From Candidatus Poribacteria bacterium (GTDB lineage Bacteria; Poribacteria; WGA-4E; WGA-3G): a DNA stretch of 64,000 nucleotides. Below the pieces are notes generated by a model. It was not told the origin of the DNA. It made no database searches and saw only the letters and a program-made list of their open reading frames with translations. The stretch's first letter is position 1; each line of letters starts with the position of its first letter. The stretch lies in assembly GCA_965205015.1 (NCBI GenBank), contig OZ242029.1:1280001-1344000 (forward strand), written 5' to 3'. Below are positions 5,894 to 64,000 of this stretch, piece by piece. A program made the translations under genes and the position numbers.

Positions 5894-5916
5894 TCAGTTT
5901 TTCACAGGAGGACGTC

Positions 5917-6696: not shown

Positions 6697-6735
6697 GATT
6701 GGTTATCAACTGACACCTATTAAAATGGAGGAGAT

Positions 6736-8372: not shown

Positions 8373-8378
8373 AGTCGA

Positions 8379-8744: not shown

Positions 8745-8864
8745 TGCTGTTCCCTTGTTGGTAGGTTTCGAGTTTACTTATCGTAAAGTATACACGAAAA
8801 ATTTTGAAAAAACAAGGGATTCAGATTCCTAAGCAGCAGCATTCAGTTTTCCGTATTACCCCAT

Positions 8865-10265: not shown

Positions 10266-10367
10266 TGGTTGTCGGTTATCGGTTGTCAGTTGTCAGTTTT
10301 TAATGCGTTGGGTTTCACGTTGTTCAACCCACCCTACCACCTGCTGACTGCTGATCGGTGCCAGCCA
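10266..10367. repeat. heptamer-arm palindromic element with a nested REP-like unit
   Basis: TCGGTTA/TCAGTTG units, inverted CTGAC units, nested GTAGGGTGGGTTGAAC..GAAACCCAAC on the minus strand. Confidence 0.7.
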
Positions 10368-10369
10368 TT

Positions 10370-11863: not shown

Positions 11864-11866
11864 CTA

Positions 11867-13264: not shown

Positions 13265-13266
13265 TT

Positions 13267-14784: not shown

Positions 14785-14787
14785 CTA

Positions 14788-16200: not shown

Positions 16201-16230
16201 TTTATAGTTATCAGTTGACCGAAAACCATT

Positions 16231-44159: not shown

Positions 44160-46762
44160 TTTATCACACTAAATTTGCCGGTGCTTTGGAATCCGTTTCC
44201 ATCGGTTGCCCGGAAGAAGTATAATCCGGTGCAGACCATTTCGCCGTGTGCGTTCGTGCAATCCCACTCGGAAGCCCCCTCCAGTACCTTAATTAAGTTT
44301 CCCAAAGCATCGTAGATTTCAACGGTTAAACCCTTCGGATAGAAGGTGAGGTGTTTGCCTTGTCCCGCATAAAGCGGGTTCGGTGCGACGACAACATTTC
44401 GGTTCTGGCTGTTTGCGACATAATTGAAGGTGCGTCCCTGCCATATCTGAGTGCCTGCTAAGCCGGCAGCGGTTTGTCCGCGTATTTTATAGAGATAGAT
44501 ACCTGTCGATGGAAACCCGTTCGTTCGGAGTGTTCCAAACCATCTCGTCTCGGTTTCTTGTGTCAAAAAAACAGTGTATTCATTTCTATTCGGACCCTCC
44601 ACTGTCAGGTGAGGTGAAGCTTGTAATGGGCGCGTGCTTTGGACTTCAACATTCCATTCGCCTATACCGTGGGGGTGCGTCCGAATGAAGAAGGCAGGTG
44701 CTCCACTCACGGTATCCACACCCGGCGTGATACTCTGCGGGACAATACTCGGTGTACCCATAAGTCCTATTGCGTCAACAGGCACAACGGCATAGTAATA
44801 GTGGAGATTGTTCGGATCAAAGAACTCGCTGTTGATATCAATTCCCTCAAAGACAGTGGGATCTTCAAACCGCGTTTGTGTGACATCAACACGCCCAACG
44901 ATGGCTATATCGTTTTCGGGAATACCGTTGCCATCGCTGTCGGCAGCAGCGAGCACTTCATCGGGATTCTGAAAAGGCAACGGGACATCCGTTTCATTCT
45001 GTAACATATAGCGTTTTCGGATGATTGCCACCTCTCGAATCTGCGCCGGATCGTCAACATTCCAAGTCACAAGAGGTCCGTTAGCACCTTGAACGACCTG
45101 TGCGCTTGAAAGCACACCTACCGGTGGCACGCCCGCCACATAGCTGACAGAGCCGCCAAAACTCCCACCCGGAATTACGACGCGCTCAACATCGGGGTGC
45201 ATATTAATTAAGATGAGCGTGATCTCCTGAATATCTCCGCCGAAATCCTTGAAGGTCATCTGTGCTTCTTGGGAACGGTGATAGGTAAACGCCTCCTTGA
45301 TTTGAGTGGTCCCATCCCGTTTCTTGACGATGAATTTGGCAGCCCATCCACGCAAACCGGTCCCTGCGTGCCGCTGCAGTTCGTCTTGAATGTTCTCCCG
45401 ATCATCAGGTGCCAAGTGTTGGAGGCTTATTGGTGCGAGATCGGCGCCATCAATTTTGACTGCGAATTCCGGCAGCAGACCTGCGGGACGGAAAACGATA
45501 TAGCGTGACGAGAAATGTTCAGGCATTGATTCGGAATCGAAATCGGAGCGAACCGGGTAACTGGCATGGACATCGTTGGGATGAATCGCGACCGGTGGGA
45601 AGCGGTGTGCGTTTCTATAGCCCGACATTCCAGTTGCTGTATTCGCACGGGTATGCGTGAAATAGTTCCAGACCGTGAAGGTCTTGAACGCCTCGGCAAG
45701 CGTGGTGCCGTTATTCGTAAAAACCTCGTAAAAATTGCCCATCTCTCGATAACTGCCATCGGTGGTGTTCTGGAAAAATTGGCGGACGATGTCGTATCCG
45801 AACCGCTCCGCCATATACAACGCCCAGATAACGGAGCCGTACTCGTGGTCGCCGATGCGGCTCTCAAGGGAAATATCTGGAATGAGAAACCAACGACGGA
45901 GTTGATGGATATAATAGTTATAGGAGTTGGTTTCGTTGGGTTCATCGGGATCGGGGAGCGTATCGCCATCGTCAATAACGCCGCCATCGTACGTCATGAC
46001 TTCTATCCACGTTGCGGACGCTTCCATGAACCATGTCGGCATATAAGCGTTATATCCGAACTGGACACCGTGCAGGAATTCATGTGTGCAGGTTGTCTCA
46101 AGATAGCGGATCCCCTCGGTTTTTCCAACGTAATCGTAGATACGGGAGTTAATCATGAAATAGGGAGCGACGGTCAGTACGGTGGATAAGACGCGTCCTT
46201 CAAACCAATCTGCGGTCGTGATACCGAGTGCTGGAAAGGTAAAGAGGTAGACATCGTATTTATGATTGCCACCGTTTTGTGCCGCCCAAAAGTCGATGTA
46301 GGGAATTTTGAAGTCCATTAGGTCAATTTGGACGTGATATGCGCGTTCCATTGCATCGGCACAGAGATCAATATAATCGGGAACGCCATTGCGCGGATGG
46401 AAATCTTCAAGCGGTGGTGCATGCGGTCCGACGCGCGTGTAATGGAGTTTAAAATGCGGCGTGTCGAACTTCTCTGGTAACTCTATCTCACCGAAGAAAC
46501 TGCCGGGCAGTCCGGGTCGCAGGAAAAGTCCTTTCAGTTTCTGCCGATGCACAGAGGGTAAGTTTCGCCAATTCTTAGCGATAGTGACAAAACTATCGGT
46601 TACACACTCGGTTATTTCGCTTGCGGTGTATCTCGGTTTGAGACGGGTGAATTGTTGAGCCGTTTGGATCGCGCGTTGGAGTTCGGGGTCTGGTGGAAGC
46701 GCGTGCACAAGAGGTAAGTATGTTATAAAGAGTGCAACGAGGGTTATAAACGATAATTTCAT
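44156..46762 (-). CDS. secreted putative zinc metallopeptidase with C-terminal secretion/FlgD-like domain
   Basis: signal peptide, HEFLH..Q..Y...WF.EASA, C-terminus APNP..IYD..G..WD..TGLYF..GKF.VIK. Confidence 0.75.
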   Translation of the reverse strand: MKLSFITLVALFITYLPLVHALPPDPELQRAIQTAQQFTRLKPRYTASEITECVTDSFVTIAKNWRNLPSVHRQKLKGLFLRPGLPGSFFGEIELPEKFDTPHFKLHYTRVGPHAPPLEDFHPRNGVPDYIDLCADAMERAYHVQIDLMDFKIPYIDFWAAQNGGNHKYDVYLFTFPALGITTADWFEGRVLSTVLTVAPYFMINSRIYDYVGKTEGIRYLETTCTHEFLHGVQFGYNAYMPTWFMEASATWIEVMTYDGGVIDDGDTLPDPDEPNETNSYNYYIHQLRRWFLIPDISLESRIGDHEYGSVIWALYMAERFGYDIVRQFFQNTTDGSYREMGNFYEVFTNNGTTLAEAFKTFTVWNYFTHTRANTATGMSGYRNAHRFPPVAIHPNDVHASYPVRSDFDSESMPEHFSSRYIVFRPAGLLPEFAVKIDGADLAPISLQHLAPDDRENIQDELQRHAGTGLRGWAAKFIVKKRDGTTQIKEAFTYHRSQEAQMTFKDFGGDIQEITLILINMHPDVERVVIPGGSFGGSVSYVAGVPPVGVLSSAQVVQGANGPLVTWNVDDPAQIREVAIIRKRYMLQNETDVPLPFQNPDEVLAAADSDGNGIPENDIAIVGRVDVTQTRFEDPTVFEGIDINSEFFDPNNLHYYYAVVPVDAIGLMGTPSIVPQSITPGVDTVSGAPAFFIRTHPHGIGEWNVEVQSTRPLQASPHLTVEGPNRNEYTVFLTQETETRWFGTLRTNGFPSTGIYLYKIRGQTAAGLAGTQIWQGRTFNYVANSQNRNVVVAPNPLYAGQGKHLTFYPKGLTVEIYDALGNLIKVLEGASEWDCTNAHGEMVCTGLYFFRATDGNGFQSTGKFSVIK

Positions 46763-46771
46763 ATTTTTTAA

Positions 46772-46865
46772 TAGTTATCAGTTGTCAGTTGTCAGTTTTC
46801 GGTTAACAAGAGAGGTTTAACGCGCACGAAAACCCCCTTTAACTGATCACTGAAATCAACAACTG
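46772..46865. repeat. heptamer-arm palindromic element
   Basis: AGTTATCAGTTGTCAGTTGTCAGTTTTCGGTTAA ... TTAACTGATCACTGAAATCAACAACT. Confidence 0.7.
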
Positions 46866-46866
46866 C

Positions 46867-47406
46867 TCAAGCAAAATGGGTTGGTTTTCCATCAAGGCTG
46901 GTGTGATTAGTTTCTTTCCAATATGCTTCTACGCCGTCTTCGCCCTTTTTCGCTGCCCACGCGTTTAACTGCTCCCTCTCACCGACATAATCATAAACCG
47001 GGACAGCCATTCCACACGAGGTTTGCACGAGGTCAACGTTGAGGTCAAAGATCTGCCTTGCTCCTGGGAGCGGCGTGAACAAAGGGAAGAGCAATTGCCA
47101 TTCGGCATCGTCTTTGTGTATCGTCTTCGCAGTGCCGTAGAGTCGGAGAATCATGGGATTATCTTGAAAAGCGGTAAACATAAGTGTCATTCGCGGGTTT
47201 TCCTGAACGTGCGCGGCGGTTTCATTCCCACTTCCCGTTACATTTAACCAAGCGACGCGGTTTGGACCCAAGACACGCAACGAATCCATGCCTTTCGGGG
47301 ACAGATTGATTCTGCTATCGGCTGTCGCGGTTGCGACAAAGAAGATTTTTTGTTCACTGATAAATTGCTGTAGTTTCTGGGGGATTTCAGTGTATAATTT
47401 TGACAT
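46867..47406 (-). CDS. pyridoxamine 5'-phosphate oxidase family FMN-binding protein
   Basis: FFVATA, NLSPKG, TGSGNET, VQTSCG.AVP; start taken at MSKLY. Confidence 0.85.
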   Translation of the reverse strand: MSKLYTEIPQKLQQFISEQKIFFVATATADSRINLSPKGMDSLRVLGPNRVAWLNVTGSGNETAAHVQENPRMTLMFTAFQDNPMILRLYGTAKTIHKDDAEWQLLFPLFTPLPGARQIFDLNVDLVQTSCGMAVPVYDYVGEREQLNAWAAKKGEDGVEAYWKETNHTSLDGKPTHFA

Positions 47407-47478
47407 CGTGTTAAGCCCTTGCTGTTTTGAAGGCGGCCAAGATAAGATGTAATCCACTCAACCGCCGACTCAAAAAAC

Positions 47479-48261
47479 TTAATGCGCTTTGATTGCCCCC
47501 CACGTGAGGGCAAGTTTCCCTGCGGGTTCAACATCAAAGGCGATTTGGTAATTTTCCATGACCTCTTTGTCATCTAAGGCACGATGATAGACAGCGACAT
47601 CGTCAATCAAACCCTCAAAATAGAAGGGTTTGATAAAGGCATTCCGGTCGTGTCCGACTGCGACGACAACATGGCTGCGTGTATCGCGACTGTTTATCTT
47701 TCCATCCGCCTCGGCATCGAGTTCACCGTTGATATAGAGGAACTTTTTCTCGTCCTCACCCGCAGCAACGAACGTTACGTGCGTCCATTCGTCCGCTTCA
47801 ACAGCCGTCTCAGTTTTGAAGACACCGAATCCGTCGCCCCCTCTTTGGGTTTGTATCGTGCCATCCGCTAAAAGTTCCAGCCATGAATCACCCCCGCCCT
47901 GTGGATCATCGTCCCAGATAATAACTTTAGGACCCTCGGGTAGGGCTGCGGGTTTAATCCACATGGCGTAGGTCAGATCCTGTCCTGTGGTGGCGGCGCC
48001 CATGACGACATAATCTTCTTCACCGTTAAAACTGAGTGCGTCTCCGACAATGCCTTCTACAATTTTCGGGGCACCCTTAATCTCCCCATCGTTTTCACCG
48101 AGGGCATCCTTGGCGACCTTGGCATCGGTATCAGCCTTATCAAAGGTCCAATGCCCGCCTAATCCGTCTTCAAGAGATTGTGCGTGTGTCACCGCTATAG
48201 GCGCGGACGTGAAGACGAGAACTACCGCGCAAAAGAGTGTAAGGAATAGACCTAATTTCAT
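47479..48261 (-). CDS. secreted LamG-domain protein with C-terminal TWGxIK motif
   Basis: HWTFD, ALSFNG, WTHV, LYING, FEGLIDDVAVY.RAL; RBS GGAGG. Confidence 0.85.
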   Translation of the reverse strand: MKLGLFLTLFCAVVLVFTSAPIAVTHAQSLEDGLGGHWTFDKADTDAKVAKDALGENDGEIKGAPKIVEGIVGDALSFNGEEDYVVMGAATTGQDLTYAMWIKPAALPEGPKVIIWDDDPQGGGDSWLELLADGTIQTQRGGDGFGVFKTETAVEADEWTHVTFVAAGEDEKKFLYINGELDAEADGKINSRDTRSHVVVAVGHDRNAFIKPFYFEGLIDDVAVYHRALDDKEVMENYQIAFDVEPAGKLALTWGAIKAH

Positions 48262-48462
48262 TGGTTCACCTCCTGGGTTTGTAAACCCATGACGTGCAAT
48301 GTGTTCTTCTTGTAGAAGCGAAATGCTTGCCACTTTTATTTGATGTATATTATATATCGTTTTGGGGGTATATGCAAGGGAAACCTCTTCTTGGTCCAAA
48401 GCCTTTCAGTTACTGGAGATGTGTCAGCGAGGAAGAGATACGTCACGATCAGGAGCGCGCTT

Positions 48463-49104
48463 TTACAAATCTTTGAGGGTTGCCCATGTGGTTGCCAACT
48501 TATGGGTGGGTTCAACGGTGTGTGGTTCGGCACCCTCGATATCAGCAACGAATTCACCTTCATAGAGACGGATGTGGTCGAGCCAGACATCCGCTTTTTG
48601 TCCACCCATGATGATGCCAGCGCGTGTACTCACATCATCTGCTGTCATTTTGAACGTGATGAAGAATTCCTTCCACGTTTCAGACAGATTGATTGTCTGC
48701 CTCGCGTATTCGTTCCACGGATCGCCTTGATGTAGGATGCGCATGACGACAGTTCTCGGTTTTTCGCTCTTCGCCCACAAACTGTAGGTATAGGTGGTGC
48801 CTTTCTCCAGCGTGAAAGGTTGCTGATAGAACTGGACATGCCATACGGCGTTACCTGCGTTACTGATTTTGATATACACCACTTTCTTTCCGACAACGGG
48901 TTCGGCTTTTTTGCCTTCAGGTTGAAAGAGGGCGGTGGCATCGGCATGTGTCCAGTGGTGCCATGCTTCGAGGTTGAGGTCGAAATCACCATTTCTGAGA
49001 ATATTTTCAGGAGGCTTCTCGGCATAAGCGTGTGTTGCGAACCCGAAAAACACCGTCAATAGAAACAGATACATGTAAGTCAAAGTTCCGTGAGTTGTGT
49101 TCAT
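48463..49104 (-). CDS. secreted CBM4/9 carbohydrate-binding protein with C-terminal TWAxLK motif
   Basis: NILRNGDF, WHVQFYQ, YTYSLWAKS, WLDHIRL. Confidence 0.8.
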   Translation of the reverse strand: MNTTHGTLTYMYLFLLTVFFGFATHAYAEKPPENILRNGDFDLNLEAWHHWTHADATALFQPEGKKAEPVVGKKVVYIKISNAGNAVWHVQFYQQPFTLEKGTTYTYSLWAKSEKPRTVVMRILHQGDPWNEYARQTINLSETWKEFFITFKMTADDVSTRAGIIMGGQKADVWLDHIRLYEGEFVADIEGAEPHTVEPTHKLATTWATLKDL

Positions 49105-49204
49105 CTCCACCTTCCTTGTCGTGCTCGCCGTCATGTTCTGAGTCATTTTCGCCGGGTTCCCCGTCATGGCTATGCTCACCACTTCCGAAGGGGTTTACCA
49201 TAAC

Positions 49205-49230
49205 AAAAAAGGCAGGTGATGCACCTGCCT
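49205..49230 (-). terminator. intrinsic terminator after 5S rRNA
   Basis: AGGCAGGTG-CAT-CACCTGCCT followed by a U tract. Confidence 0.85.
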
Positions 49231-49241
49231 CTTGAAAGGAT

Positions 49242-49358
49242 TCCCGGCAACGACCTACTTTCCCGCGGGGTTGCCCCCGAAGTATCATCAGCGCTGAAGG
49301 GCTTAACTACCGTGTTCGGGATGGGAACGGGTGGGTCCCCTTCGCTATAGCCACCGGA
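49242..49358 (-). rRNA. rrf: 5S rRNA
   Basis: CCGGTGGCTATAGCG...CCCATCCCGAACAC..AGTTAAGC...AGTAGGTCGTTGCCGG. Confidence 0.96.
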
Positions 49359-49450
49359 AAATTGTTTGTATGGCTCAGTATGATGTCCGAGCCGTTACAA
49401 GAGTATTTGACAATTGTATATAATGTGAGGGGTCAGTAGAAGAGAAGAAG

Positions 49451-52418
<2,968 letters not shown>

Positions 52419-52492
52419 GTAATCTTATTCTTCTACCGATTTACCCTCTATATACAATTGTCAAAGAACAACGCCTATTCAATCATAGGCGA

Positions 52493-52561
52493 TGGAGCTG
52501 AACGGGGTCGAACCGTTTTCTGCCACACTGATGGCAGATGCTCACCTGAATGAGCTACTCC
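52493..52561 (-). pseudogene. degenerate tRNA-like element (resembles tRNA-Ala)
   Basis: D arm GCTC/GAGC, T arm AACGG-TTCGACC-CCGTT, 3' CAGCTCCA; abnormal anticodon arm and short acceptor 5' strand. Confidence 0.65.
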
Positions 52562-52582
52562 TAACGTTCATCTATGGTATGT

Positions 52583-52611
52583 AGTATACCACAAAAAATT
52601 AACTTTGTCAA
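52583..52611 (-). promoter_or_regulatory. promoter upstream of the tRNA-like element and 23S
   Basis: TTGACA-17nt-TATACT with TG extension and AT-rich upstream tract. Confidence 0.75.
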
Positions 52612-52699
52612 ATTTATTTTGCAAAAAAATCTAATTTTCGCCAAATTTGACCCGTTATCGCTTTATTTTTTAGCGTGAAAGCCGAGCCTGTAACCCGGA

Positions 52700-52772
52700 T
52701 GGAGATGAGCGGATTTGAACCGCTGACCTTCTGGTTGCAAACCAGATGCTCTCCCAACTGAGCTACACCCCC
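52700..52772 (-). tRNA. tRNA-Ala(TGC), CCA not encoded
   Basis: GGGGGTGTAGCTCAGTTGGGAGAGC...TTTGCAA...GGTTCAAATCC...CATCTCCA. Confidence 0.95.
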
Positions 52773-52786
52773 AAACGATCATATGT

Positions 52787-52865
52787 AGTATACACCAAAA
52801 AGCGATACATGTCAAATTTATTTTGCAACAGAGTTAAGTATACCACAAAAAGCGATACATGTCAA
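52787..52865 (-). promoter_or_regulatory. two tandem promoters (50-bp period) upstream of tRNA-Ala
   Basis: TTGACA-17nt-TATACT at 52787-52815 and 52837-52865. Confidence 0.75.
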
Positions 52866-52886
52866 ATTTATTTTCAATTTAATACG

Positions 52887-53693
52887 TTATCTGGGGACGT
52901 TCCACCCCAATACAGGTCCACCCATTGGGATTCCGAGTCTTTCGTATCGTTCTTTGTCCTTTTTCCACCTTTTTAAGTTCGCTTTTGTGGCATCTGAGGG
53001 ATAGAGGTGGACTTCTGCCGTATAGAGTTCTATTGCTTCATCAATGGTAAGTCCGATGCCGTATCGGAATTTCTGCTTGAGTCGGAGATAGGTGCGGACT
53101 TCTGGAATATCTCCGAATTTCTTGATGAAAGGGTTGTGAGGACTCGGATTGTCTGGGTCATCCGTGAAAGGGTTAACGAGGACAAAATCTGGGGACACCT
53201 GTTTATCACGGACGGATGGGTTTTGAACGAACTCCTTACTGGCATCCACTACGGCATCAAGGATATAGGAGGGTAAATGCTCACGCACGGGGATTCCGAG
53301 TCTTTGGTACCGCTGTTTATCTGCTTTCAGATCCTTTAACATTTCCTTTGCAGCAGGGGTGGGATAGAGGTGGACTTCTGCCGTATAGAGTTCTATTGCC
53401 TCATCAATGGTAAGTCCGATGCCGCGTCCAAGTTTTTGCTTCAATCGGAGATAGGTGCGGACTTCTGGAATATCTCCAAATTTCTTGATGAAGGGGTTGT
53501 GAGGACTCGGATTGTTTGGATCATCCGTGAGCGGGTTAACGAGGGCAAAATCTGGCGATACCCGTTTATCACCGGTGGGTGGGTTTTGAAGGGGCTCCTT
53601 GACACGCCTTGCACTGCAACCGGACAGCAGGGTTATAAAAATAACAAAAAAAATCAAGTTCGCGGGGGTCGCTTCCGTAGTCGTTTCATCCAT
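52887..53693 (-). CDS. lipoprotein with an internal tandem duplication (363-bp period) of a GDIPEV domain
   Basis: LLSGC lipobox; two near-identical FGDIPEVRTY...AEVHLYP units; 5' end overlaps pafA. Confidence 0.7.
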   Translation of the reverse strand: MDETTTEATPANLIFFVIFITLLSGCSARRVKEPLQNPPTGDKRVSPDFALVNPLTDDPNNPSPHNPFIKKFGDIPEVRTYLRLKQKLGRGIGLTIDEAIELYTAEVHLYPTPAAKEMLKDLKADKQRYQRLGIPVREHLPSYILDAVVDASKEFVQNPSVRDKQVSPDFVLVNPFTDDPDNPSPHNPFIKKFGDIPEVRTYLRLKQKFRYGIGLTIDEAIELYTAEVHLYPSDATKANLKRWKKDKERYERLGIPMGGPVLGWNVPR

Positions 53694-55096
53694 CTTTGCG
53701 CCTTCGTGATGTTGGTGTCAAAGGGTTCCTTCATCTCAAAATACTCTGTATGTCCCGCATATATTTGATGCCAATCGACGATACAAGGCATCCTGTATTG
53801 GGTGAGGGTCCGCATGAGGAATGCTCGGACTTTGGCACGGGTATCTTGGGGTGCGTTGTCAATAGCGTGCTGAATGTGTTCATCGGTGACAACGCGCTGC
53901 ATTTGTCCCTGCTCCTCCAGTGCGTAGTAGAGTCCGCTTTCGGTATGGATGTTATGATATTCTAAATCTTGACTTTTAATCCAAGGGTCTTCCCAATCCA
54001 ATTTTTCTTCATCAATGAAAGCTTCAAGGAGCCATTTCTTTGCCGCCCAATCGACGCGATCGATAACATTTAGCCAATCATCTTCGAGCTCATTAAGGAT
54101 AGACTCCCATGCCGCAAGCACCCATTCGGTTTCCTCGTCACGATCGGTAACCAAAGCCTGAACGAAGTTAAGATACTCTCTCTGTAAATCAACGGCAGAG
54201 ATCGTTTTTCCGGATTTCAGTTCGACGCGCCAGGTGAAGGTATTATCGCGTGAGATGTGTCGAATCGCGTAGACGGGATCGGCGAGTTCAAAACCCGGGA
54301 GCGGCAATTTTTCGCCATGCATCTCGTAGAATATTTCAATAGCAGAGAGCAAAAGTGCAGTCGTGCCGACCTTCAGGGCGGTTGCGTACTCTGACATATT
54401 GGAATCCCCAACGAGAAGATGGAGACGCCGATATTTCGTATAATCACTGAGGGGTTCGTCTCGTGTATTGATGATGGCGCGACTGAACTGGATCCATTCG
54501 TATATTTCAGTAACGATGTGATCAGCGCGCTGCGAGATTTGATAGTATTGTTGCTCAGCAAGTTCGTCGTGAAAATCGCCGAATTCAATCATTTCATCAT
54601 ACGCCCCCACTCTGCCCGCCCCTGCATAAATCTGGCGTGTAACGAAGAAGGGCATCAGTGTCGGGATAACAACACGGTAAAAGGGAACGTCTCGACTGAT
54701 TTGGAAGTTTTCGTGACATCCAAAGGTTGCACCTGTAAAATGATCGATATTATTTTTGAAAAATGCCGTAGGTAACCCTGTATCTGTAAGGATATTGTTG
54801 ATAACCTGTTCAATGGCTTTGTCGTAAGCGATAAGGTCAAAAAGCGTACCGCATTCGGGTGTAGCGTACTCCAGATGCCCCATATCAATGTAGAGACGTC
54901 CTCCATTGTACAGGAACCCACCGTTGCCCGGAGGTTCACCCCAGTCTCGGTAGTGAATATCCCGAAGCCCGAGTTCCAACACATCGAAAACATAATCCCG
55001 TACGCGTGCCGCAACACCCTCAGAGGTGCCACGAATCCGTTCGGCATCCGTCATGCATCCGAATTCAGTTTCGATCCCAAAAATTCTTTTTTTCAT
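53654..55096 (-). CDS. pafA: Pup/UBact ligase homolog
   Basis: IFGIETEFG, NGGRLYIDMGHLEYATPEC, GCHENF, INTRDEP, DLEYH; last gene of the operon. Confidence 0.88.
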   Translation of the reverse strand: MKKRIFGIETEFGCMTDAERIRGTSEGVAARVRDYVFDVLELGLRDIHYRDWGEPPGNGGFLYNGGRLYIDMGHLEYATPECGTLFDLIAYDKAIEQVINNILTDTGLPTAFFKNNIDHFTGATFGCHENFQISRDVPFYRVVIPTLMPFFVTRQIYAGAGRVGAYDEMIEFGDFHDELAEQQYYQISQRADHIVTEIYEWIQFSRAIINTRDEPLSDYTKYRRLHLLVGDSNMSEYATALKVGTTALLLSAIEIFYEMHGEKLPLPGFELADPVYAIRHISRDNTFTWRVELKSGKTISAVDLQREYLNFVQALVTDRDEETEWVLAAWESILNELEDDWLNVIDRVDWAAKKWLLEAFIDEEKLDWEDPWIKSQDLEYHNIHTESGLYYALEEQGQMQRVVTDEHIQHAIDNAPQDTRAKVRAFLMRTLTQYRMPCIVDWHQIYAGHTEYFEMKEPFDTNITKAQRWMKRLRKRPPRT

Positions 55097-55120
55097 TTTT
55101 AATTTTACTTTAAAGGGAAA

Positions 55121-55891
55121 TTATGGGAGTGCGGTTTCAATTTCTTGAGAAGTCAGCAGACGAAATTTACTCGTACCGCGCTGCGCAGTTTCCAAAACCC
55201 CTGCCTCAATTTCACCGTCTTCCCGTGCAAGATTAATAATTTCGTGCATTTGGGCAGTATCTATCTGGGTCTCCTCCGATTCAGCCTCCTCGGGTTCCCG
55301 GGAACTCAATTCTCTACCCACTGCCCACGCTTCTAAACCCAACTGGAGTGCAGCGGTTAAATCTCTGTCGGTATCTGCAGAAGCAGTCGTGAGATAGTTT
55401 TGCATTCCCGTCTCGATTGCCTCTGTACCACCGATAACGGTAGCGGTTGTGTCTGTTCGGACATTCCCGTCGTAGTTGATACAGGTAAAACGGTTTTTAT
55501 CATCCGTGCTGCCGAGTTCAGCGAGCAACATTTTAATGATATATGCTTCACCGACAATCGACTCAAACGCTTGTTTAAAAGTATGTGCCAAGACAAAGTT
55601 CGTGAGTCGGTGTAGGTTCACGTCCTCGGTGGCATTTTGAAAACCTTGGACGCTGGCGGTGTCGGTAACAAGCATTCGGAGGCGTTCAATATCGGCAGGG
55701 TGCCCGATTGCGGAGAGTGCGATTCGGTCATGCACCTCAAAAATTTTGCGTTGTCCTCTACCAATGGTAAGCAGGACCATACCCTCGTTATAGGTAAGTC
55801 CTACAACGGGACTCCCAGCGCGGAGTTGGTCTTCAATGTAATCTCGTCGGTCCTGGATGGCTTCTATCCAGCGATACGGTTCATCTCGCAT
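55121..55891 (-). CDS. prcA: 20S proteasome alpha subunit
   Basis: KIFEVHDRI..SAIG..AD.E.LR; lies between prcB and pafA. Confidence 0.85.
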   Translation of the reverse strand: MRDEPYRWIEAIQDRRDYIEDQLRAGSPVVGLTYNEGMVLLTIGRGQRKIFEVHDRIALSAIGHPADIERLRMLVTDTASVQGFQNATEDVNLHRLTNFVLAHTFKQAFESIVGEAYIIKMLLAELGSTDDKNRFTCINYDGNVRTDTTATVIGGTEAIETGMQNYLTTASADTDRDLTAALQLGLEAWAVGRELSSREPEEAESEETQIDTAQMHEIINLAREDGEIEAGVLETAQRGTSKFRLLTSQEIETALP

Positions 55892-56026
55892 ATTTTAATT
55901 TTTCCTTGCGGTTCGATCAGGGGCGTTTGAATGATGACATGCGCTCCCGTATATCCGTCCTCCACTACGTTACGGACTACGCTAAAAGAACGGCACCAAA
56001 GTTTTCACAAGCAGCCTCGCTTCAAG

Positions 56027-56881
56027 TTATGCTTGCTCTGGTTGTGCTTCAGCGTAACATGCCTCCAAGTCATCATCGGAAATATTTTCAACGCCGGTGC
56101 GTGTTACAGTCTTGAGATTTGGAAAAATTTGTGCTCTTGCGTTGTAACCGCTTGTGGCGGCATCGTACTCGCTTGCTGTGTCCAAGAGGCGTAAGATCGT
56201 GATGGTCGCCTGACGCTCATCCATCTCTTTCAAGGGTGTATCACCGAACCGAGAGAGATAACGTAACACGCCGCGGATCCAGATGGAGCCGGAACCGGTC
56301 GTGGCAAAATTGACGTTTTCAAAGTGTGCCCCGAGTGCGTCATAGAAAAAAATTTTTCCGCCATTCTCATCATCAGCGGCATTCAAATCGTAGAGGGCAA
56401 AGATCGGGATAACACCTCCAATGCCTTGAAGTGCCATCGGCAGATTTTCTCGGATGAGCCGCGAGAGCATCCGGAGCTTGCCTTCAAGACTCAACTCTTG
56501 GAGCTGGCTGCGGCGAAAGTATTGAAACGAGTGCTCCAGTATTCTGGCGATCTCATAAGCGATTGCGGGTGACCCTGAAATTGCGAGCACAGAATGCCTA
56601 TCGATCTGCAAAACCTTCTCTGCCCGATCATAGATGACAGAAGTGCCAGCGGTAGCACGCCGGTCCCCTGCGATCATAACGCCATCTCGGTAACGAACAG
56701 CGACAACAGTCGTACTATGTGCTATCTCAATGTCAACACCGTGCCGTGTCGTTTCCGCGGGCACATCTATCTTCAAGGGATAGTTTGCGTGCTTTAAGAG
56801 GTTGAGGAAGTCACCTTTATGGTTGATGCTTTCCTGTAGCCGCGCGTCCATTCGATTCAGAAAATTGCCGTTATCGCTCAT
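56027..56881 (-). CDS. prcB: 20S proteasome beta subunit
   Basis: propeptide then HS/TTVVAVRY.DGV..AGDRRAT, TGSGS. Confidence 0.9.
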   Translation of the reverse strand: MSDNGNFLNRMDARLQESINHKGDFLNLLKHANYPLKIDVPAETTRHGVDIEIAHSTTVVAVRYRDGVMIAGDRRATAGTSVIYDRAEKVLQIDRHSVLAISGSPAIAYEIARILEHSFQYFRRSQLQELSLEGKLRMLSRLIRENLPMALQGIGGVIPIFALYDLNAADDENGGKIFFYDALGAHFENVNFATTGSGSIWIRGVLRYLSRFGDTPLKEMDERQATITILRLLDTASEYDAATSGYNARAQIFPNLKTVTRTGVENISDDDLEACYAEAQPEQA

Positions 56882-57078
56882 TACTCACCCGTTCTTTGGC
56901 GGTAACGTCTGGACTGATCTTTGTCAACCCGACGCATCCGTTTGAGGAGTTCTTGTGTATCGGGCCGACTGACTTTCTGTCGTTTGGGTCCCTCGTTATC
57001 GCCATCACCATCACCGGGTCCGATGGGTTTGGTGTCTCTTTGCTTCCGTTCGAGTTGAGCAATCATCTTGGCTGTCAT
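56881..57078 (-). CDS. ubact: ubiquitin-like modifier UBact (65 aa)
   Basis: LLKRMRRVD..Q..RYRQRTGE C-terminus at the pup position between dop and prcB; RBS AGGAG. Confidence 0.88.
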   Translation of the reverse strand: MTAKMIAQLERKQRDTKPIGPGDGDGDNEGPKRQKVSRPDTQELLKRMRRVDKDQSRRYRQRTGE

Positions 57079-57094
57079 TTTATGTCTCCTTTTT

Positions 57095-58621
57095 TTATCG
57101 ATGCAATTTTTCAATGAGCGTCTCAACGTTTGGGGATTGATCGAGTACCTCGTTATATTGACGTGCGATCGCTGCATCGGCGAGGGCATTTAGACTGACT
57201 TCGCGGGTGCGTCCGTTTACCGTGAAAGTAATACTATCCCACTGGATAGCCTTTATGGCACTGCTGAATCGATCTACAGCGCGTCCGCGGAAGTATGCCC
57301 GTGTGTCGGCAGGTGGATTATGGAGCGCGGCATCAATCTGTTCATCCGTAACGAGGCGCCGCATCGGAATCCCATAGTATAGTCCTTCATCGAGAGCGAT
57401 GTTGTGATATTCTAAATCCAAGCTTTGGAGCCATGGGTCATCCCAGGCGACTCCCTCTTCCTCAGCAAACGTTTCAAGCAGCCATTTCTTGGCGACCCAA
57501 TCCAGTCGATCCGTGAGTGACATTGGGTCCCCCTCAAGTGCGTTGAGGGTATCTTCCCACTCGGTGAGCACCCAGTCCGTTTCAGGTAGGAACGCGGTAC
57601 CCTCGCTATTCGCGAGATGCTTCTGTGCGAGGGCAAGATACTCCCGTTGATGGTCAACGGCGGACATTGTTTTCCCTTCTGCCGTCGTTACTATCCAACG
57701 ATACGTCTGGTCATGCGATACAGTTTTGATGGTATCAATCGGGTTAACGAGTGCTAACTCCGCTGGAACCCTCCGCTGTTCAATCAAAGTAATCACGAGT
57801 GCTGTCGTGCCGACTTTGAGTGCCGTTGCGTATTCGGACATATTTGCATCTCCGGCGATGCCGTGCAACCTACGATATTTCGAGGCATCCGCATGCGGTT
57901 CATCTCGCGTGTTGACGATAGGTCGGTTATGCATCGTATCCACACTCGCCTCGACGTGAAAGAAATCGGACCGTTGCGATAACTGGTAGTGTCCTGGTGT
58001 GGCGAGCCCGGCTTCCGTTTCAATCCCGATCTTTCCTGCCCCTGCGAAGATTTGGCGTGTGATAAAGAACGGCATGATACCTTGCTTGAGCGTTTCAAAC
58101 GGCACTTCGCGTGCCATCAAGTAGTTATCGTGGCACCCGTAACTATGCCCATGGAAATCGGTATTATTCTTGTATAAAAGCACCCGTTTTCCGAGTTTCT
58201 GACTGCGTGTTTCGGCACACCGTTGAAGGATGCGTTCGCCGGCTTTATCATGTGCGACGAGGTCAAAGAGACTCTTGCATTCAGGCGTTGAATACTCCGG
58301 ATGTGCGTGGTCGTTGTAGAGTCGCGCCCCATTGGCGAGAATATGATCGCTTTTGATTTCAGCGAAAGAGAGTCGCTCTTTCGTATTGCGTTTCCGGTCG
58401 CGTTCCTCCTCCTCCTTCTCATCAGGATGATTAGAAAGGGTGTTTGCCCGAAAGCCGCGTTCATCTCGAAACGGATCCTCACCGCGGTAGTCCCACACGG
58501 GTCGAAAATCTGCTTGTCGATAACTTTTTATGAGCTCAATAGACTGCTTGACGGCATCAAGGTGCGCTTCGTTTTCGAGTGTTATTCCGTATTCAGTTTC
58601 GATTCCAAAAAGTCTTTCCAT
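57095..58621 (-). CDS. dop: Dop depupylase/deamidase homolog
   Basis: LFGIETEYG, NGARLYNDHAHPEYSTPEC, YKNN.D..G.SYGCH; start taken at MERLFG. Confidence 0.88.
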   Translation of the reverse strand: MERLFGIETEYGITLENEAHLDAVKQSIELIKSYRQADFRPVWDYRGEDPFRDERGFRANTLSNHPDEKEEEERDRKRNTKERLSFAEIKSDHILANGARLYNDHAHPEYSTPECKSLFDLVAHDKAGERILQRCAETRSQKLGKRVLLYKNNTDFHGHSYGCHDNYLMAREVPFETLKQGIMPFFITRQIFAGAGKIGIETEAGLATPGHYQLSQRSDFFHVEASVDTMHNRPIVNTRDEPHADASKYRRLHGIAGDANMSEYATALKVGTTALVITLIEQRRVPAELALVNPIDTIKTVSHDQTYRWIVTTAEGKTMSAVDHQREYLALAQKHLANSEGTAFLPETDWVLTEWEDTLNALEGDPMSLTDRLDWVAKKWLLETFAEEEGVAWDDPWLQSLDLEYHNIALDEGLYYGIPMRRLVTDEQIDAALHNPPADTRAYFRGRAVDRFSSAIKAIQWDSITFTVNGRTREVSLNALADAAIARQYNEVLDQSPNVETLIEKLHR

Positions 58622-58630
58622 TTTTTTAAA

Positions 58631-58720
58631 GCCATCAGCCATCAGCGGTTCGCCATCAGCAAAGCGGTAAGCGTATCAGAAATACGCTTCTCTTTGCTGA
58701 CAGCCGATAACCGATCGCCA
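58631..58720. repeat. heptamer-arm palindromic element between arc and dop
   Basis: GCCATCAGCCATCAGC..ATCAGCAAAG / CTTTGCTGACAGCCGATAACCGAT. Confidence 0.65.
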
Positions 58721-58723
58721 TTC

Positions 58724-60544
58724 CTAAATGACGCGTGATCCGGAGGCTCTGCGTCGCTCCTGTTTTTCAGCCTGAATAGGCGTAACTTTGACAACGTTTG
58801 CTGGATCGTAATCCAGGAGTTTAAGCCAGTCCTCAGTCGCCTCAGTCGGTGGGAAGATTTCGCTTTCGCCATACTCCGCGGCGAGTGCGTCGAACAGGTC
58901 CGCGCGCGTGATACCACTTTCCTTCTCTGGATTCTGAATCGCACGTTTGAGTGCGGATTCCTTCGCCCGCTGCACAATTGACTCAATAATTGCCCCGCTG
59001 CAGAGATGTCCCTTATAGAGGATATCGCGTCTGCCACTCCTGAGAGACACTTCAAGGAATCGGTTGTCTTCGTCTTCACGGAACATCTCATCAACGACCT
59101 GTGCGATAAGATCCGCAACGGCTTTCTCAGCCGGGATCACTTCGGGGGGTGTTTCACCTTCTCCTGTTTCGGTATCGTTCCCGTCATCAAGGAGCGAAGC
59201 GATGGGGAGTTCAGGGGTGAGATAGATACGGAAGATATCCTTCGCAGCCTCTGCCTTTGGACGCGTTACTTTAATTTTTCTATCAATGCGCCCTGGACGT
59301 AAAATGGCAGGGTCAATCAGGTCAGGACGGTTTGTTGCCAAGATAATGACGACATCCTGCAGAGATTCAATACCGTCCATCTCAGCACAAAACATCGGGA
59401 CCAGTGTGTTCGAGATACTGTGGGATCTGAGTGCGCGGCGCGTCCCCAATATTGACTCCGCTTCATCGATAAAGACGAACGCCAGTTTTCCATCTTCTTT
59501 TTTCTCACGGGCAATCTGAAAAATTTCTCGTACCTTCCGTTCAGATTCACCGAGCCACATGTTGAGAATTTCAGGTCCCTTGATATGTAGGAAACACCCT
59601 TCGACATCCTCACCGCTTTCCCGTCGGAGTCGCTGCGTTAAGTTGTAAGCGGTCGCTTTCCCAATGAGTGTTTTCCCACATCCTGGAGGCCCATGGAGCA
59701 GGAACCCTTTCGGTGCACTATACTGGAACCGTTCAAAAAGTTCAGGGTGCAGGATCGGAAGTTCAATCGTATCCTTAATGCGTTGGATCGTATCGTCAAG
59801 TCCGCCGACCTTTGACCACGGTATATTCGGCACAGCCTCAAGGGCGTACGCGTCTGTCTCTTTCGCGGCGATATGTTCAAGGGCGACACGGAAGTTGGCG
59901 TCAATCCGAACCTCATCCCCGGGCTTGAGTTTCGCATCGACGAGGTCTGTGGAGCGTTCAAGAATAACCGTTTGTGCGTTCGGTTCTTGACCGATACGGA
60001 GCCGTCCATCTGGCATGACATCGGCTATCTTCGCGATAGGTCCCGCATCGTTGTATCCGAGTTCGCCGACAACGACAAAAGCGTCGTTCAACAGGATGCT
60101 GAACCCCTTTTTAAGGTTGGGCGCTTCGAGCTCCGGATCAATGTTCGCATAGTATTCGGAGCCACCGACGATGACGCGGGCGATATCCTCTTTGGGCAAT
60201 CCGAGTAAGGTTCCGATCCGATTCGCGGGTGCGGTGAGCTTCTCAATCTGCTCCTCCATCTCCGCGTGGATACGGACGGCTTCCTGCTGAATCGCGCGGA
60301 GCCTCTCCTGAAATTCGCCTTCGTCGTTGAGAATAGAGCGACGGAGTTCCATGAGCCAGCGACGGCGCCGGTCATCTACCGGGGTATCGGCAATAATGTG
60401 GTGAATTAACTGTAACGAATAGCCGGAACCCATTGCGTCCTCTTCGGGCGAGAGTTCCTCTTCAAGTTCCTCGTCATCTTCAATAAACAGGTCGTTCCCA
60501 TCGGGACCTGGACCAGTAGTTTTACGATTCTTCTTATCGTACAT
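58724..60544 (-). CDS. arc: proteasome AAA ATPase (ARC/Mpa)
   Basis: coiled coil + OB region, GPPGCGKTLI, IKGPEILN, FIDEAES, ATNRPDLIDPAILRPGRID. Confidence 0.9.
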   Translation of the reverse strand: MYDKKNRKTTGPGPDGNDLFIEDDEELEEELSPEEDAMGSGYSLQLIHHIIADTPVDDRRRRWLMELRRSILNDEGEFQERLRAIQQEAVRIHAEMEEQIEKLTAPANRIGTLLGLPKEDIARVIVGGSEYYANIDPELEAPNLKKGFSILLNDAFVVVGELGYNDAGPIAKIADVMPDGRLRIGQEPNAQTVILERSTDLVDAKLKPGDEVRIDANFRVALEHIAAKETDAYALEAVPNIPWSKVGGLDDTIQRIKDTIELPILHPELFERFQYSAPKGFLLHGPPGCGKTLIGKATAYNLTQRLRRESGEDVEGCFLHIKGPEILNMWLGESERKVREIFQIAREKKEDGKLAFVFIDEAESILGTRRALRSHSISNTLVPMFCAEMDGIESLQDVVIILATNRPDLIDPAILRPGRIDRKIKVTRPKAEAAKDIFRIYLTPELPIASLLDDGNDTETGEGETPPEVIPAEKAVADLIAQVVDEMFREDEDNRFLEVSLRSGRRDILYKGHLCSGAIIESIVQRAKESALKRAIQNPEKESGITRADLFDALAAEYGESEIFPPTEATEDWLKLLDYDPANVVKVTPIQAEKQERRRASGSRVI

Positions 60545-60819
60545 TTGAACGTCTCCTCAGACAGCAGCGGATGACTTTACGATAGAGTTTACCACATTTC
60601 CCACAATTTTACGAATATTTATTTAGAACCTGCTCAAATTGGGAAATACCGTGATAATTTGCAATAGTTTAGCACAATTTGCAACACGGATGCAACAAAA
60701 AAACAAGTTTGAAGGGAATTTCGAGGAAAGGTAGCGTAATTTGGGAAAATCGGAGGATAGAACAGAAGCACTTTGATAACGGAAAACCAACGCAATGATC
60801 TTGAAGATAACCAACGATT

Positions 60820-62181
60820 GTCACTTACCCCCATTTTTTTTCGAGAGTAGATTGTAGTTGATGTAGTCAGGTTTTTCTGTGAGAAAGTCAGTCAGTGAGT
60901 GGGTCCGAAAAGTGGATCCCCTCTGGCACCTATCTCGGTGAAAAAGGAGATAAGAAAGTGTTGGTTCCATAAGTCGGTGAGCACGCGTTTGATAATAGTA
61001 ATAACAGAAAAAGTTTTTCTGTTATTACTATTATATGCCCTCTGCCAATGCGTAGAGGCGACCTTCTCGTAACTGATAAACAGCAATCCATAAGCGAGGC
61101 AGGCACATAACCAAAGGACCTCCAGACGCGCTTGTGTCGGTTTTTTCAAGACGAGTTTACCAAATCCGAAGCACGACTTTATATCTCGAAACCCGTGTTC
61201 AATCTGCATGCGGCGTTTGTAGCAGTGATGTATCTGATGTCCACTGAGGCGATTGGAGATAAGATACATCGGGTCTTTGAAGGTCTCATCTCTGAGGATA
61301 TAGAGTTGAAGCGGTATCTGCTCCTGCGCCTGATAAAGGATATGCCGATACCAGCCCGCTTCGAGGTCATCAAGTTTCTTCAGACTCCCATCATGCCGGA
61401 TACCGACATTTCTCGCAACACGCATCACGAACGGGATATCCCGTGCCTTGAGAAACTTGATGACGTATCGCGCACGCCCAAAACCACGGTCAAACACCAG
61501 AACAGGTCGTTGTTGATGCCGCGACACCACCCCTAAAGCCTCTTGATAAACATGGACACAGAAGTATTGGATAATCTCATTATGACTCTTATAGATACCC
61601 TCGTGAAGCTGGTGATCGCTATAGATGAACCAAAAGACAGGGATCGCACGATGCCGAAACGGGATCGAAACAACAAGGGCTTTCCACCCGGCAATCAGAG
61701 ACGTCTCATCAACGAGCAAATACAGATGAGCACCCGCATCCTTGAAAAACCAACCCACAACCGACACGAACCACGCTTCTTTGAGCGCATCAATCGGCAG
61801 TGGGGTGTCAAGGAAACGCAGAAACCTTTTCTGTTTCGACTTCTCCCGCTTGACGACGAGCGACAAACGCGACGCAACTTCATTGATCCGAAACGTCGGG
61901 GCAACACTGATCGCTATCAAGACCAATACCAGATTCCGAAAAACCGGTTTTTTCATACCAACAGACTTGAAGATTTCTCCAAAACGTGTTATCATCGTTT
62001 CTGGATTTACCCGTTTTGGGTATCTCTTTTTCATAAAATACCTCCTTACATGTTTTGTAAAATGCGTTTACAAACAGTTGCTGTAAGGAGGTATTTTATC
62101 ATAAACCCACTGAGTTTCTCACACTTTTTACAACTAAAACCTTTCACCACAAACCTTCAGAAAAAAATGGGGGTAAGTGAC
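60820..62181 (-). mobile_element. insertion sequence, copy 2 (1362 bp)
   Basis: same TIRs as copy 1; 9-bp TSD CCAACGATT at 60811-60819 and 62182-62190. Confidence 0.92.
60892..62034 (-). CDS. DDE transposase, identical to 40481..41623
   Basis: identical 380-aa translation. Confidence 0.92.
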   Translation of the reverse strand: MKKRYPKRVNPETMITRFGEIFKSVGMKKPVFRNLVLVLIAISVAPTFRINEVASRLSLVVKREKSKQKRFLRFLDTPLPIDALKEAWFVSVVGWFFKDAGAHLYLLVDETSLIAGWKALVVSIPFRHRAIPVFWFIYSDHQLHEGIYKSHNEIIQYFCVHVYQEALGVVSRHQQRPVLVFDRGFGRARYVIKFLKARDIPFVMRVARNVGIRHDGSLKKLDDLEAGWYRHILYQAQEQIPLQLYILRDETFKDPMYLISNRLSGHQIHHCYKRRMQIEHGFRDIKSCFGFGKLVLKKPTQARLEVLWLCACLAYGLLFISYEKVASTHWQRAYNSNNRKTFSVITIIKRVLTDLWNQHFLISFFTEIGARGDPLFGPTH

Positions 62182-62253
62182 CCAACGATTAACTTGACTT
62201 CTGCCAACCCGTATGTTAGGATAGGGGCAAAATAACAGCAGGAGAAACACTAT

Positions 62254-64000
62254 ATGACACTGATATCCCTGTTAGAACATTCAATCCAGCACTACGGCAG
62301 TCAACCGGCATTGGCATACAAACCGAAAGGTGGCACCTATCAAGATATCTCTTACACTGAACTTGGCGAATCGGTGGACGCCTTTCGTAAAGGGTTAACT
62401 GCCTTAGGGGTGCAAAAGAACGATCGGGTCGCGCTTCTCTCTGAGAACCGTCCCGAATGGGCAATCACGGATTTTGGTAGCCTCAAAGCCGGTGCGGTAA
62501 CCGTACCGATGTTCTCAACGCTAACGGCGGCACAGGTCGGTTATATCCTAAAGGATTCGGGATCGAAAATTATCTGCGTCTCCACGGACAGGCAGTTGGA
62601 GAAGGTACTGGCTATCCGAGACGAAATGCCGACGCTTGAACAGATAATTGTCTTTGATCCGATTGAAGGTGAACTCCCAGCGGGCGTTATCCAATTTGAG
62701 GCAGTCTGTGAATTGGAAGGACAGGAAACAGAAACCGCCGCGAGTGAAGACGACATCGCAACGATTATCTACACTTCGGGAACGACGGGAGATCCGAAGG
62801 GTGTTATGCTGACCCATGCGAATTTCATTTCAAATTTGCAGGCGTGTAAATCGCTGATCGATGTCAGTGATGCAGACGTGCTGTTGTCGTTCCTGCCGTT
62901 ATCACATGTGTTTGAACGGCTCGGTGGGCATTATGTGCCGTTGTTCTCCGGTGCGAAGGTGGCTTATGCGGAGAGCACGTTCACGGTTGCACAGAATATG
63001 CGGGAGGTCGCTCCGACGGTGATGCTCAGTGTGCCGAGACTCTACGAAACCATGCATGACAGAATCCTGCGTGCCGTTCAAGAAGGCTCACCACTCAAAC
63101 AGAAGATTTTCCATTGGGGGGTCTCCGTCGGTTCATCCGTGAGTTCAGCGATTCAAAAAGGGAAAAAACCGTCTGCGATTTTGCAATTACAGCAGAACAT
63201 CGCCGATAAACTGGTCTTCGCGAAACTGAAAGCGGCAACGGGGGGTCGACTCCGCTTTTTCGTCTCTGGTGGTGCCGCATTACCCCAATCGATTGCCGAA
63301 TTTTTCCACGCCGCGGGGATACTGATTTTGGAGGGATACGGTCTAACGGAAACCTCACCCGTCATTAGCATGAACCATCCGGCACAATGGAAGTTTGGCA
63401 CTGTTGGCGTGCCTGTCCCCGGGGTGGAGGTGCACATTGCTGAAGATGGAGAGATTTTAACCCGCGGTCCACACGTTATGAAGGGCTACTTTAACAACGA
63501 ATCGGCGACTGCAGAGGTTATTGATGACGAGGGTTGGTTTCACACGGGCGACATCGGTATCATTGATGCGGATGGGTTCGTTAAGATTACCGATCGGAAG
63601 AAGAATATTATTGTGCTTTCCAACGGTAAGAACGTTGCCCCGCAACCGATAGAGAGCGCGTTGGTGCAAAGTCCGTTTATTGACCAGATTATGTTGGTGG
63701 GCAATGAACGGAAAAATCTCGCTGCACTGATCGTTCCGAATTTCGACGCACTCAAGGCGTGGGCAGCGGAGAATAACGTCGCGACGGGAAGGACGGACGG
63801 GGGGACCCCGCCCCTACATGAGGCGCGCGAGGTGCAACAACTGATTCAAGGTGAGATCCGGAGCGGTTTAACCGATTTCGCCGACTTTGAACAGGTACGA
63901 CGGTTCACGCTGCTCGACAAGGAATTTTCTCAAGAAGCGGATGAGATGACACCCACGCTGAAGTTGAAACGGAATGTTATTATGGAGCGATACGGAGATA
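62254..64000 (+). CDS. fadD: long-chain fatty acid-CoA ligase (runs off the window end)
   Basis: read directly from sequence: MTLISLLEH..., YTSGTTGDPKGVMLTH, EGYGLTETSP, GWFHTGDIG, ITDRKK; RBS AGGAG. Confidence 0.9.
   Translation, partial: MTLISLLEHSIQHYGSQPALAYKPKGGTYQDISYTELGESVDAFRKGLTALGVQKNDRVALLSENRPEWAITDFGSLKAGAVTVPMFSTLTAAQVGYILKDSGSKIICVSTDRQLEKVLAIRDEMPTLEQIIVFDPIEGELPAGVIQFEAVCELEGQETETAASEDDIATIIYTSGTTGDPKGVMLTHANFISNLQACKSLIDVSDADVLLSFLPLSHVFERLGGHYVPLFSGAKVAYAESTFTVAQNMREVAPTVMLSVPRLYETMHDRILRAVQEGSPLKQKIFHWGVSVGSSVSSAIQKGKKPSAILQLQQNIADKLVFAKLKAATGGRLRFFVSGGAALPQSIAEFFHAAGILILEGYGLTETSPVISMNHPAQWKFGTVGVPVPGVEVHIAEDGEILTRGPHVMKGYFNNESATAEVIDDEGWFHTGDIGIIDADGFVKITDRKKNIIVLSNGKNVAPQPIESALVQSPFIDQIMLVGNERKNLAALIVPNFDALKAWAAENNVATGRTDGGTPPLHEAREVQQLIQGEIRSGLTDFADFEQVRRFTLLDKEFSQEADEMTPTLKLKRNVIMERYGD

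Follow-up and report, generated by a model that had tools for sequence, protein, structure and literature searches.

This study concerns a proteasome operon in a stretch of 64,000 nucleotides from a Candidatus Poribacteria genome (contig OZ242029.1, positions 1,280,001 to 1,344,000; "the window" below is this whole 64-kb stretch, and coordinates count from its first letter). The operon is built around UBact, a small protein modifier, and is itself a known, database-annotated system without new content. Our results bear on its genomic setting and on its ATPase. Most Poribacteria species seem to combine a Pup system with a UBact system, and each of the two has a separate ATPase and a separate 20S particle. 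The UBact-type ATPase (ARC) has no tyrosine at the penultimate position of its C-terminal tail; to judge from the sequences compared, this tyrosine-free tail is real, is fixed in Poribacteria, and marks a separate ATPase clade together with Nitrospinaceae and Nitrospirota proteins. The trait could matter for work on bacterial proteasomes, since the UBact-type clade as a whole is without the penultimate tyrosine, which is regarded as the chief determinant of binding to the core. Neither the clade-wide tyrosine-free tail nor the two-system setting was found in the literature that we searched.

We tentatively propose, while rating it somewhat below an even chance, that Poribacteria run two insulated ubiquitin-like degradation pathways per cell, one in which the acidic tag Pup goes with an aromatic ATPase tail, the other in which the basic UBact goes with an aliphatic tail (x-[V/I/A]-I), each with its own 20S; the tyrosine-free tail would be a second docking code directing each unfoldase to its own core.

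Two proteasome operons in Poribacteria

The second operon was found in a related genome (G001), whose UBact-operon DNA (locus L001) is 88-90% identical to that of the window and which gave four Pup_ligase matches instead of two. There, apart from the UBact operon of the same genome, a complete classical Pup-proteasome operon sits between recA and the gene of pyruvate phosphate dikinase (locus L161, G001:C1:3271000-3290900, positions 5002-16186; recA, arc, dop, pup, prcB, prcA, pafA, ppdK). Five of its six proteins score above the NCBIfam equivalog cut-offs, the exception being PafA (526 vs 551). Its Pup is acidic and ends in GGQ, with a net charge of -20 where UBact has +7, its ARC ends in GGTFL, and its PrcB has glycine before the catalytic threonine. 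Counterpart proteins of the UBact and Pup operons share 29-42% identity (the alpha subunits 29%), and a direct comparison of the two tags gave no sequence similarity. The charge of the first 60 residues of the ATPase also differs between the two systems (-11 vs -3). The candidate pocket lysine discussed below is kept in both alpha subunits.

These features recur in a sample of 20 Pup-type operons, made of L161 and 19 loci from 19 further genomes. All 20 have the same gene order, an aromatic penultimate residue in ARC (12 Tyr, 8 Phe) and glycine before the catalytic threonine of PrcB; their Pup ends in GGQ in 18 cases and in GGE in two. Among 175 Poribacteria species genomes, 172 have Pup_ligase matches, 158 of them at least four; Pup is present in 166, UBact also in 166, and both together in 160. 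Since incomplete metagenome bins make up many of the 175, a miss need not mean that the gene is truly absent. The systematic differences in tag charge, ATPase tail and alpha subunits, which are divergent, probably keep the two pathways from cross-talk. The Poribacteria pair offers a natural set of related, possibly non-interchangeable systems, in which part swapping could test tag recognition, ligase specificity and docking.

A tyrosine-free ATPase tail

The ARC of the window (606 residues, 58724..60544, minus strand; PF17758, PF16450, PF00004) is a proteasomal AAA+ ATPase of the UBact-type clade. Along the chain, an acidic N-terminus is followed by a coiled coil, two OB domains, an AAA module and, at the C-terminus, a tail; Walker A (GPPGCGKT), Walker B and the pore loop W-L-G were read intact from the translation. 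Its closest solved relatives are structures of Mycobacterium tuberculosis Mpa (5kwa, 7px9; E ~1e-100). The alignment reaches residue 588 and leaves 18 residues beyond the last one aligned with Mpa, a tail similar in length to that of Mpa itself. The last seven residues (ASGSRVI, codons at 58727..58747, minus strand) form an ending that closes on S-R-V-I without a penultimate tyrosine.

With one genome per prokaryote species searched, 582 stretches encoding UBact relatives came to light; the best 80 served as Poribacteria loci, 77 of them labelled Poribacteria and three "uncultured bacterium", with no UBact operon from another phylum among these 80. All 76 loci that include the C-terminus of ARC end in [R/P]-V-I (51 RVI, 25 PVI), and none has an aromatic penultimate residue. 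In the 51 distinct tails the final valine and isoleucine are invariant, while the linker before them is variable.

Beyond these loci, the nearest non-identical ARC relatives, taken as representatives of 50%-identity clusters, end in NVI, QAI, SII and TIE. SII comes from Nitrospinaceae, TIE from Nitrospirota, and N[V/I]I from another Poribacteria lineage. The clusters of ATPase relatives that could be named are those of Nitrospirota, of Nitrospinaceae and of a further Poribacteria lineage, besides one that is archaeal; they are considered here by their ATPase sequences. The 111 Nitrospinaceae tails are uninformative on selection because they are 95-99% identical overall. Remoter ATPases, with 33-43% identity to the window ARC, mostly end in GQYL, GHYL or GHYF. 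One further relative (P0121, 894 residues, 51% identity) carries a second AAA module in tandem and ends in Ser-Ile.

Two quick trees bear on these groups. In the first, with 44 ATPase rows, the window falls in a clade of eight rows (SH-aLRT 99), seven of which end in an aliphatic residue and isoleucine. In the second, with 26 rows that were hand-chosen and left out the rows with other endings inside the aromatic clade of the first, UBact-type ATPases form one clade (SH-aLRT 100) in which six of seven rows have the aliphatic-Ile ending and one has TIE; all 17 aromatic-tailed rows, including four Pup-type ARCs of Poribacteria, lie on the other side (SH-aLRT 97).

The partner of the tail would be the alpha ring. 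PrcA (256 residues, 55121..55891, minus strand; PF00227, 35.6 bits) is a divergent 20S alpha subunit that aligns with Rhodococcus alpha 1 and with M. tuberculosis PrcA. Its Lys49 (codon at 55745..55747, minus strand), a candidate docking-pocket lysine, corresponds in the alignment to the lysine within the Rhodococcus alpha 1 stretch ...LHKVSELYDR and is invariant in an alignment of 36 UBact-type alpha subunits. We take the Rhodococcus residue to be the docking-pocket lysine, equivalent to the pocket lysine of M. tuberculosis. A pairing between a conserved alpha-subunit lysine and the C-terminus of the activator is described in the review PMC12288473.

The original prediction had noted that the ATPase ends in ASGSRVI without the GQYL/HbYX motif and had concluded that it docks to the 20S in a different way. 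The first statement was correct, and the absence of the motif holds for all 76 UBact-type tails of Poribacteria. Its conclusion has to be divided. A different docking motif in UBact-type ARC is plausible, because the absence of GQYL is real and conserved; a different mode of docking does not follow from it. Since the tail is similar in length to that of Mpa and the alpha lysine is kept, our data point to the simplest reading, the same pocket-type docking with an aliphatic instead of an aromatic motif.

The UBact operon of the window

The locus is probably a functional UBact-proteasome operon of Candidatus Poribacteria, and a member of the non-actinobacterial system already described. Six intact open reading frames lie on the minus strand between 53654 and 60544 in the order arc-dop-ubact-prcB-prcA-pafA, separated by 81, 16, -1, 135 and 24 bases; the negative value is a one-base overlap between the stop codon of ubact and the start of prcB. 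The same six genes, in identical order and on one strand, are found in 73 of the 80 Poribacteria loci, so that the operon is not a chance arrangement. The nearest homologues of its ATPase and of UBact carry the NCBI name Candidatus Poribacteria.

The modifier itself (56881..57078, minus strand) has 65 residues, a net charge of +7 and the ending RYRQRTGE, which contains the family pattern R-Y-R-Q-R-x-G-[E/Q]. It scores 66.1 bits against PF20513 and 69.6 bits against NF033388, above both cut-offs (27.8 and 35 bits). Within the proteasome cluster its gene stands between dop and prcB, as in the 73 related loci, and several Poribacteria tags among its homologues are already named "ubiquitin-like protein UBact" by NCBI. 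The ending RYRQRTGE is found in all 80 Poribacteria loci and in 93 of 104 UBact homologues, others of which end in RTGQ (four), RGGE (three) and RAGE (one). A scan of metagenomes gave a further clade of 80 soil contigs (L081-L160) with only ubact, prcB and prcA, without arc, dop or pafA in their flanks, and there the tag ends in glutamine in 71 of 80 loci; both endings thus exist in the UBact family. A reduced cluster also occurs in L181, from a distant Poribacteria genome (G015), where ubact, prcB, prcA and pafA are present, with no arc or dop within the flanks examined.

The dop gene (57095..58642, minus strand) encodes an enzyme of 515 residues of the deamidase/depupylase type, expected to remove the tag (PF03136, 563 bits). 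It scores 415 bits against solved Dop structures and 262 bits against solved PafA, and the motif around its catalytic aspartate, NDHAHPEYSTPE, is Dop-type when judged by table 1 of PMC7947786, a source on Dop and PafA. The GxExE start is intact in this enzyme and in the one encoded in the pafA position. Pup species with a Glu-ended tag keep Dop. According to PMC7947786 Dop also removes the tag, and its retention is therefore expected; a terminal glutamate together with dop is, by comparison of the tags, the norm of the UBact family and no anomaly.

The beta subunit PrcB (284 residues with a 56-residue propeptide, 56027..56881, minus strand; PF00227) has a predicted autoprocessing site at H55-S56 / T57-T58 (56708..56719, minus strand), where AHS/TTVVAV aligns with pHG/TTIVA of Rhodococcus beta 1 (2h6j_H). 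In the alignment the mature beta chains of the Protein Data Bank (PDB) begin at residue 57 of the query and, with Thr57 counted as residue 1, the catalytic Thr1, Asp17 and Lys33 are in place relative to the Rhodococcus and M. tuberculosis beta subunits. The position before the catalytic threonine is held by Ser56 in the window and not by glycine. Across the 80 Poribacteria loci it is serine in 51 and alanine in 24, five having no match to the pattern; among 72 prcB genes of the soil clade it is alanine in 53 and serine in 17, two having no match. Glycine was met there in one UBact-type locus, L181. Since serine, alanine or glycine can stand there, the position accepts small residues in the UBact-type family, and the serine of the window is, on this alignment, a lineage variant.

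Much of this had been anticipated. The original prediction had listed the six-gene operon, the 65-residue modifier ending in RYRQRTGE and the identity of the whole as a UBact tagging-and-degradation operon; each of the six frames was recovered in place and is matched by Pfam and NCBIfam, the translation bears out the modifier, and the identification is right, with the function itself assigned by homology. It had also called two features non-canonical, the retention of dop beside a terminal glutamate and HS/TT instead of HG/TT in PrcB. Both were accurately read, but neither is exceptional: the glutamate ending is the consensus of the family and Dop removes tags, and the residue before the catalytic threonine varies by lineage.

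The putative UBact ligase

The last gene of the operon (53654..55096, minus strand) encodes a putative UBact ligase of 480 residues (PF03136, 452 bits). Its assignment is our inference from gene position, the missing Dop loop and a few PafA-type residues. The Dop loop is absent and the PafA-type alanine and threonine are present in ...EYATPE, while in the motif IDMGHLEYATPE residues of the PafA type stand beside others of the Dop type. Judged by table 1 of PMC7947786, the enzyme is without the inserted residue specific to PafA, and its alpha-loop fits neither PafA nor Dop. The enzyme scores 347.1 bits against TIGR03688 and 356.1 bits against TIGR03686, both below the cut-off, and is 47% identical to the Dop of its own operon vs 40% to the Pup-type PafA of a relative.

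Proposed mechanism and alternative explanations

Our literature searches for UBact found no experiment on ligation, removal or degradation, so every step that follows, docking and insulation included, is drawn from homology. The enzyme in the pafA position would use ATP to join the side-chain carboxylate of the C-terminal glutamate of UBact to lysines of target proteins; no deamidation would be needed, because the tag already ends in glutamate. The ARC hexamer would bind the basic tag through its N-terminal region, unfold the target and thread it into the PrcA/PrcB 20S particle, whose beta subunit would mature by self-cleavage at Ser56/Thr57, and the Dop-like enzyme would remove the tag. The ARC tail would most likely insert into the alpha-ring pockets with Lys49, an aliphatic x-[V/I/A]-I end replacing the aromatic GQYL/HbYX.

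A number of observations, besides the lack of experiments on UBact, weigh against these proposals. The second operon was observed in relatives only, whose UBact-operon DNA is 84-91% identical to that of the window. The rule for the tail is not universal even within the clade, where the Nitrospirota proteins end in TIE; in the 44-row tree three aliphatic-Ile rows lie outside the clade of the window, and the aromatic clade includes many rows that end differently. Five of the six window proteins fall below the equivalog cut-offs of the Pup system in NCBIfam (TIGR03686-03691): ARC (TIGR03689) with 445.2 vs 504.75, Dop (TIGR03688) with 490.1 vs 492.3, PafA (TIGR03686) with 356.1 vs 551.3, PrcB (TIGR03690) with 166.3 vs 191.9 and PrcA (TIGR03691) with 73.1 vs 139.05. 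UBact gives no match to the NCBIfam Pup model. The putative ligase reaches 244-255 bits with solved Dop and a similar 238-240 bits with solved PafA, and in a tree built from 21 sequences of Dop and PafA there are four clean groups without a clear branching among them.

The most serious alternative to two insulated pathways is that the difference between the tails has no function. ARC would then dock as Mpa does, with its carboxylate on the pocket lysine and a hydrophobic side chain beside it, and V-I instead of Y-L would reflect drift, without selectivity for either 20S. Such an explanation is possible, if less likely than not. It would agree with the pocket lysine being present in both alpha subunits and with a tail whose length and preceding domain resemble those of Mpa, and also with the statement, in the review PMC12288473, that even the glutamine of GQYL is dispensable. 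Drift does not readily account for endings that split cleanly between deep ATPase clades and are each fixed in Poribacteria (76/76 and 20/20) despite a shared cytoplasm, nor for alpha subunits of the two systems that are only 29% identical.

Alternatively, UBact-type ARC might not dock by its tail at all. The conserved end would then serve another role, such as autoinhibition within the ring or the binding of an adaptor, and degradation would proceed through other contacts or another activator. We regard this as improbable, although there is precedent in mycobacteria, where Mpa keeps its tail tucked inside the ring and by itself is weak in vitro (PMC12288473 and PMC8755798), and although the residue described in PMC8755798 as the main binding determinant, the penultimate tyrosine, is absent from the window ARC. 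The presence of arc and prcBA in one operon in 73 of 80 loci argues against it, as do the invariant alpha lysine and the lack of any other activator gene among the annotated genes of the window.

Finally, the operon might be a duplicate of the Pup system that is decaying or silent. This is very improbable in spite of the family scores under the equivalog cut-offs and of an insertion sequence (IS) element 275 bases upstream of arc, because all frames are open with catalytic residues intact, 166 of the 175 species genomes retain the system, an identity of 29-42% between the two systems is far too low for a copy in decay, and sponge metatranscriptome contigs over most of the operon are compatible with, if not proof of, expression in relatives. 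Frameshifts or losses of catalytic residues in most relatives, the signs of a pseudogene, were not observed.

Transcripts, spacer and flanking DNA

Contigs from four sponge metatranscriptome runs, belonging to three studies, cover 20 to 29 of 30 operon bins with 90-99% likeness, and a single contig of 2334 bases extends from prcB across ubact and dop as far as the last part of arc. These contigs may reflect expression of the operon in relatives; they are also compatible with DNA carry-over, and prove neither a single transcript nor its strand. The flanks (53000-53533 and 60743-61000) are nearly uncovered, which is no valid silent control because they hold strain-specific insertions.

The depth of the contigs peaks at 55670-55936, with many loose ends, at a leader module between prcB and prcA, as if this module were common to many genes. 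The spacer between these genes (55892-56026 in the window, with its counterparts in L001-L058) differs in length from locus to locus, 54 distinct Poribacteria loci giving values between 12 and 1286 bases. It contains recurring short leader modules with a Shine-Dalgarno sequence, some of them tandemly duplicated. The module gave no Rfam match and is present in a single copy in the window.

The IS element upstream belongs to the IS4 family, has 1362 bases and a DDE transposase of 380 residues, and is present in two copies that are 100% identical (60820-62181 and 40409-41770). The first separates arc from the divergent gene of an AMP-binding enzyme and is 275 bases upstream of the start of arc; related genomes are without an insertion there.

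On the other side, a frame at 52887-53693 (minus strand) encodes 268 residues in two near-identical halves, with a lipoprotein-like N-terminus, and is matched by neither Pfam nor NCBIfam. L001 and L004 lack the DNA at 52875-53639 and have the tRNA-Ala gene next after pafA; a weak match was seen in just one of the 80 loci. Directly downstream of the operon come genes of tRNA-Ala(TGC), 23S rRNA and 5S rRNA (49242-52865, minus strand), and an rRNA scan of 44000-64000 found no 16S gene in this region. Promoter-like sites (TTGACA, 17 bases, TATACT) occur at 52865, 52815 and 52611. Farther away, 8865-17742 (minus strand) holds six tandem paralogous genes of ABC-2 type permeases, each with a DUF3526 region.

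Comparison with known systems

The UBact conjugation-proteasome system of non-actinobacterial bacteria was reportedly described by Lehmann, Udasin, Livneh and Ciechanover in 2017 (BBRC 483:946), reportedly with Poribacteria included. Compared with the UBact system as represented by PF20513 and NF033388, the window agrees in tag family, in the RYRQRTGE end and in gene order, dop and prcB flanking the tag, and shows no defining difference.

Relative to the actinobacterial Pup system (M. tuberculosis Mpa, Dop, Pup, PrcB, PrcA and PafA; PDB 5kwa, 7px9/7pxa, 4b0r, 4b0t), the operon fills the six roles in unchanged order with homologous proteins, keeps the catalytic residues, and has an ATPase tail that follows the same domains. 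The two differ in the tag, which in the window is basic, unrelated in sequence to actinobacterial Pup and ends in TGE rather than in GGQ or GGE. They differ also in the end of the ATPase (SRVI instead of GQYL) and in the residue before the catalytic threonine (serine instead of glycine).

The closest comparison is with the Pup operon of Poribacteria themselves (L161 and the 19 further loci), which shares with the operon of the window the host lineage and the six-gene layout while having its own ATPase and its own 20S. Within this lineage the Pup system has a GG[T/A][Y/F][L/F] tail and glycine before the catalytic threonine, whereas the UBact system has an S[R/P]VI tail and serine or alanine at that position.

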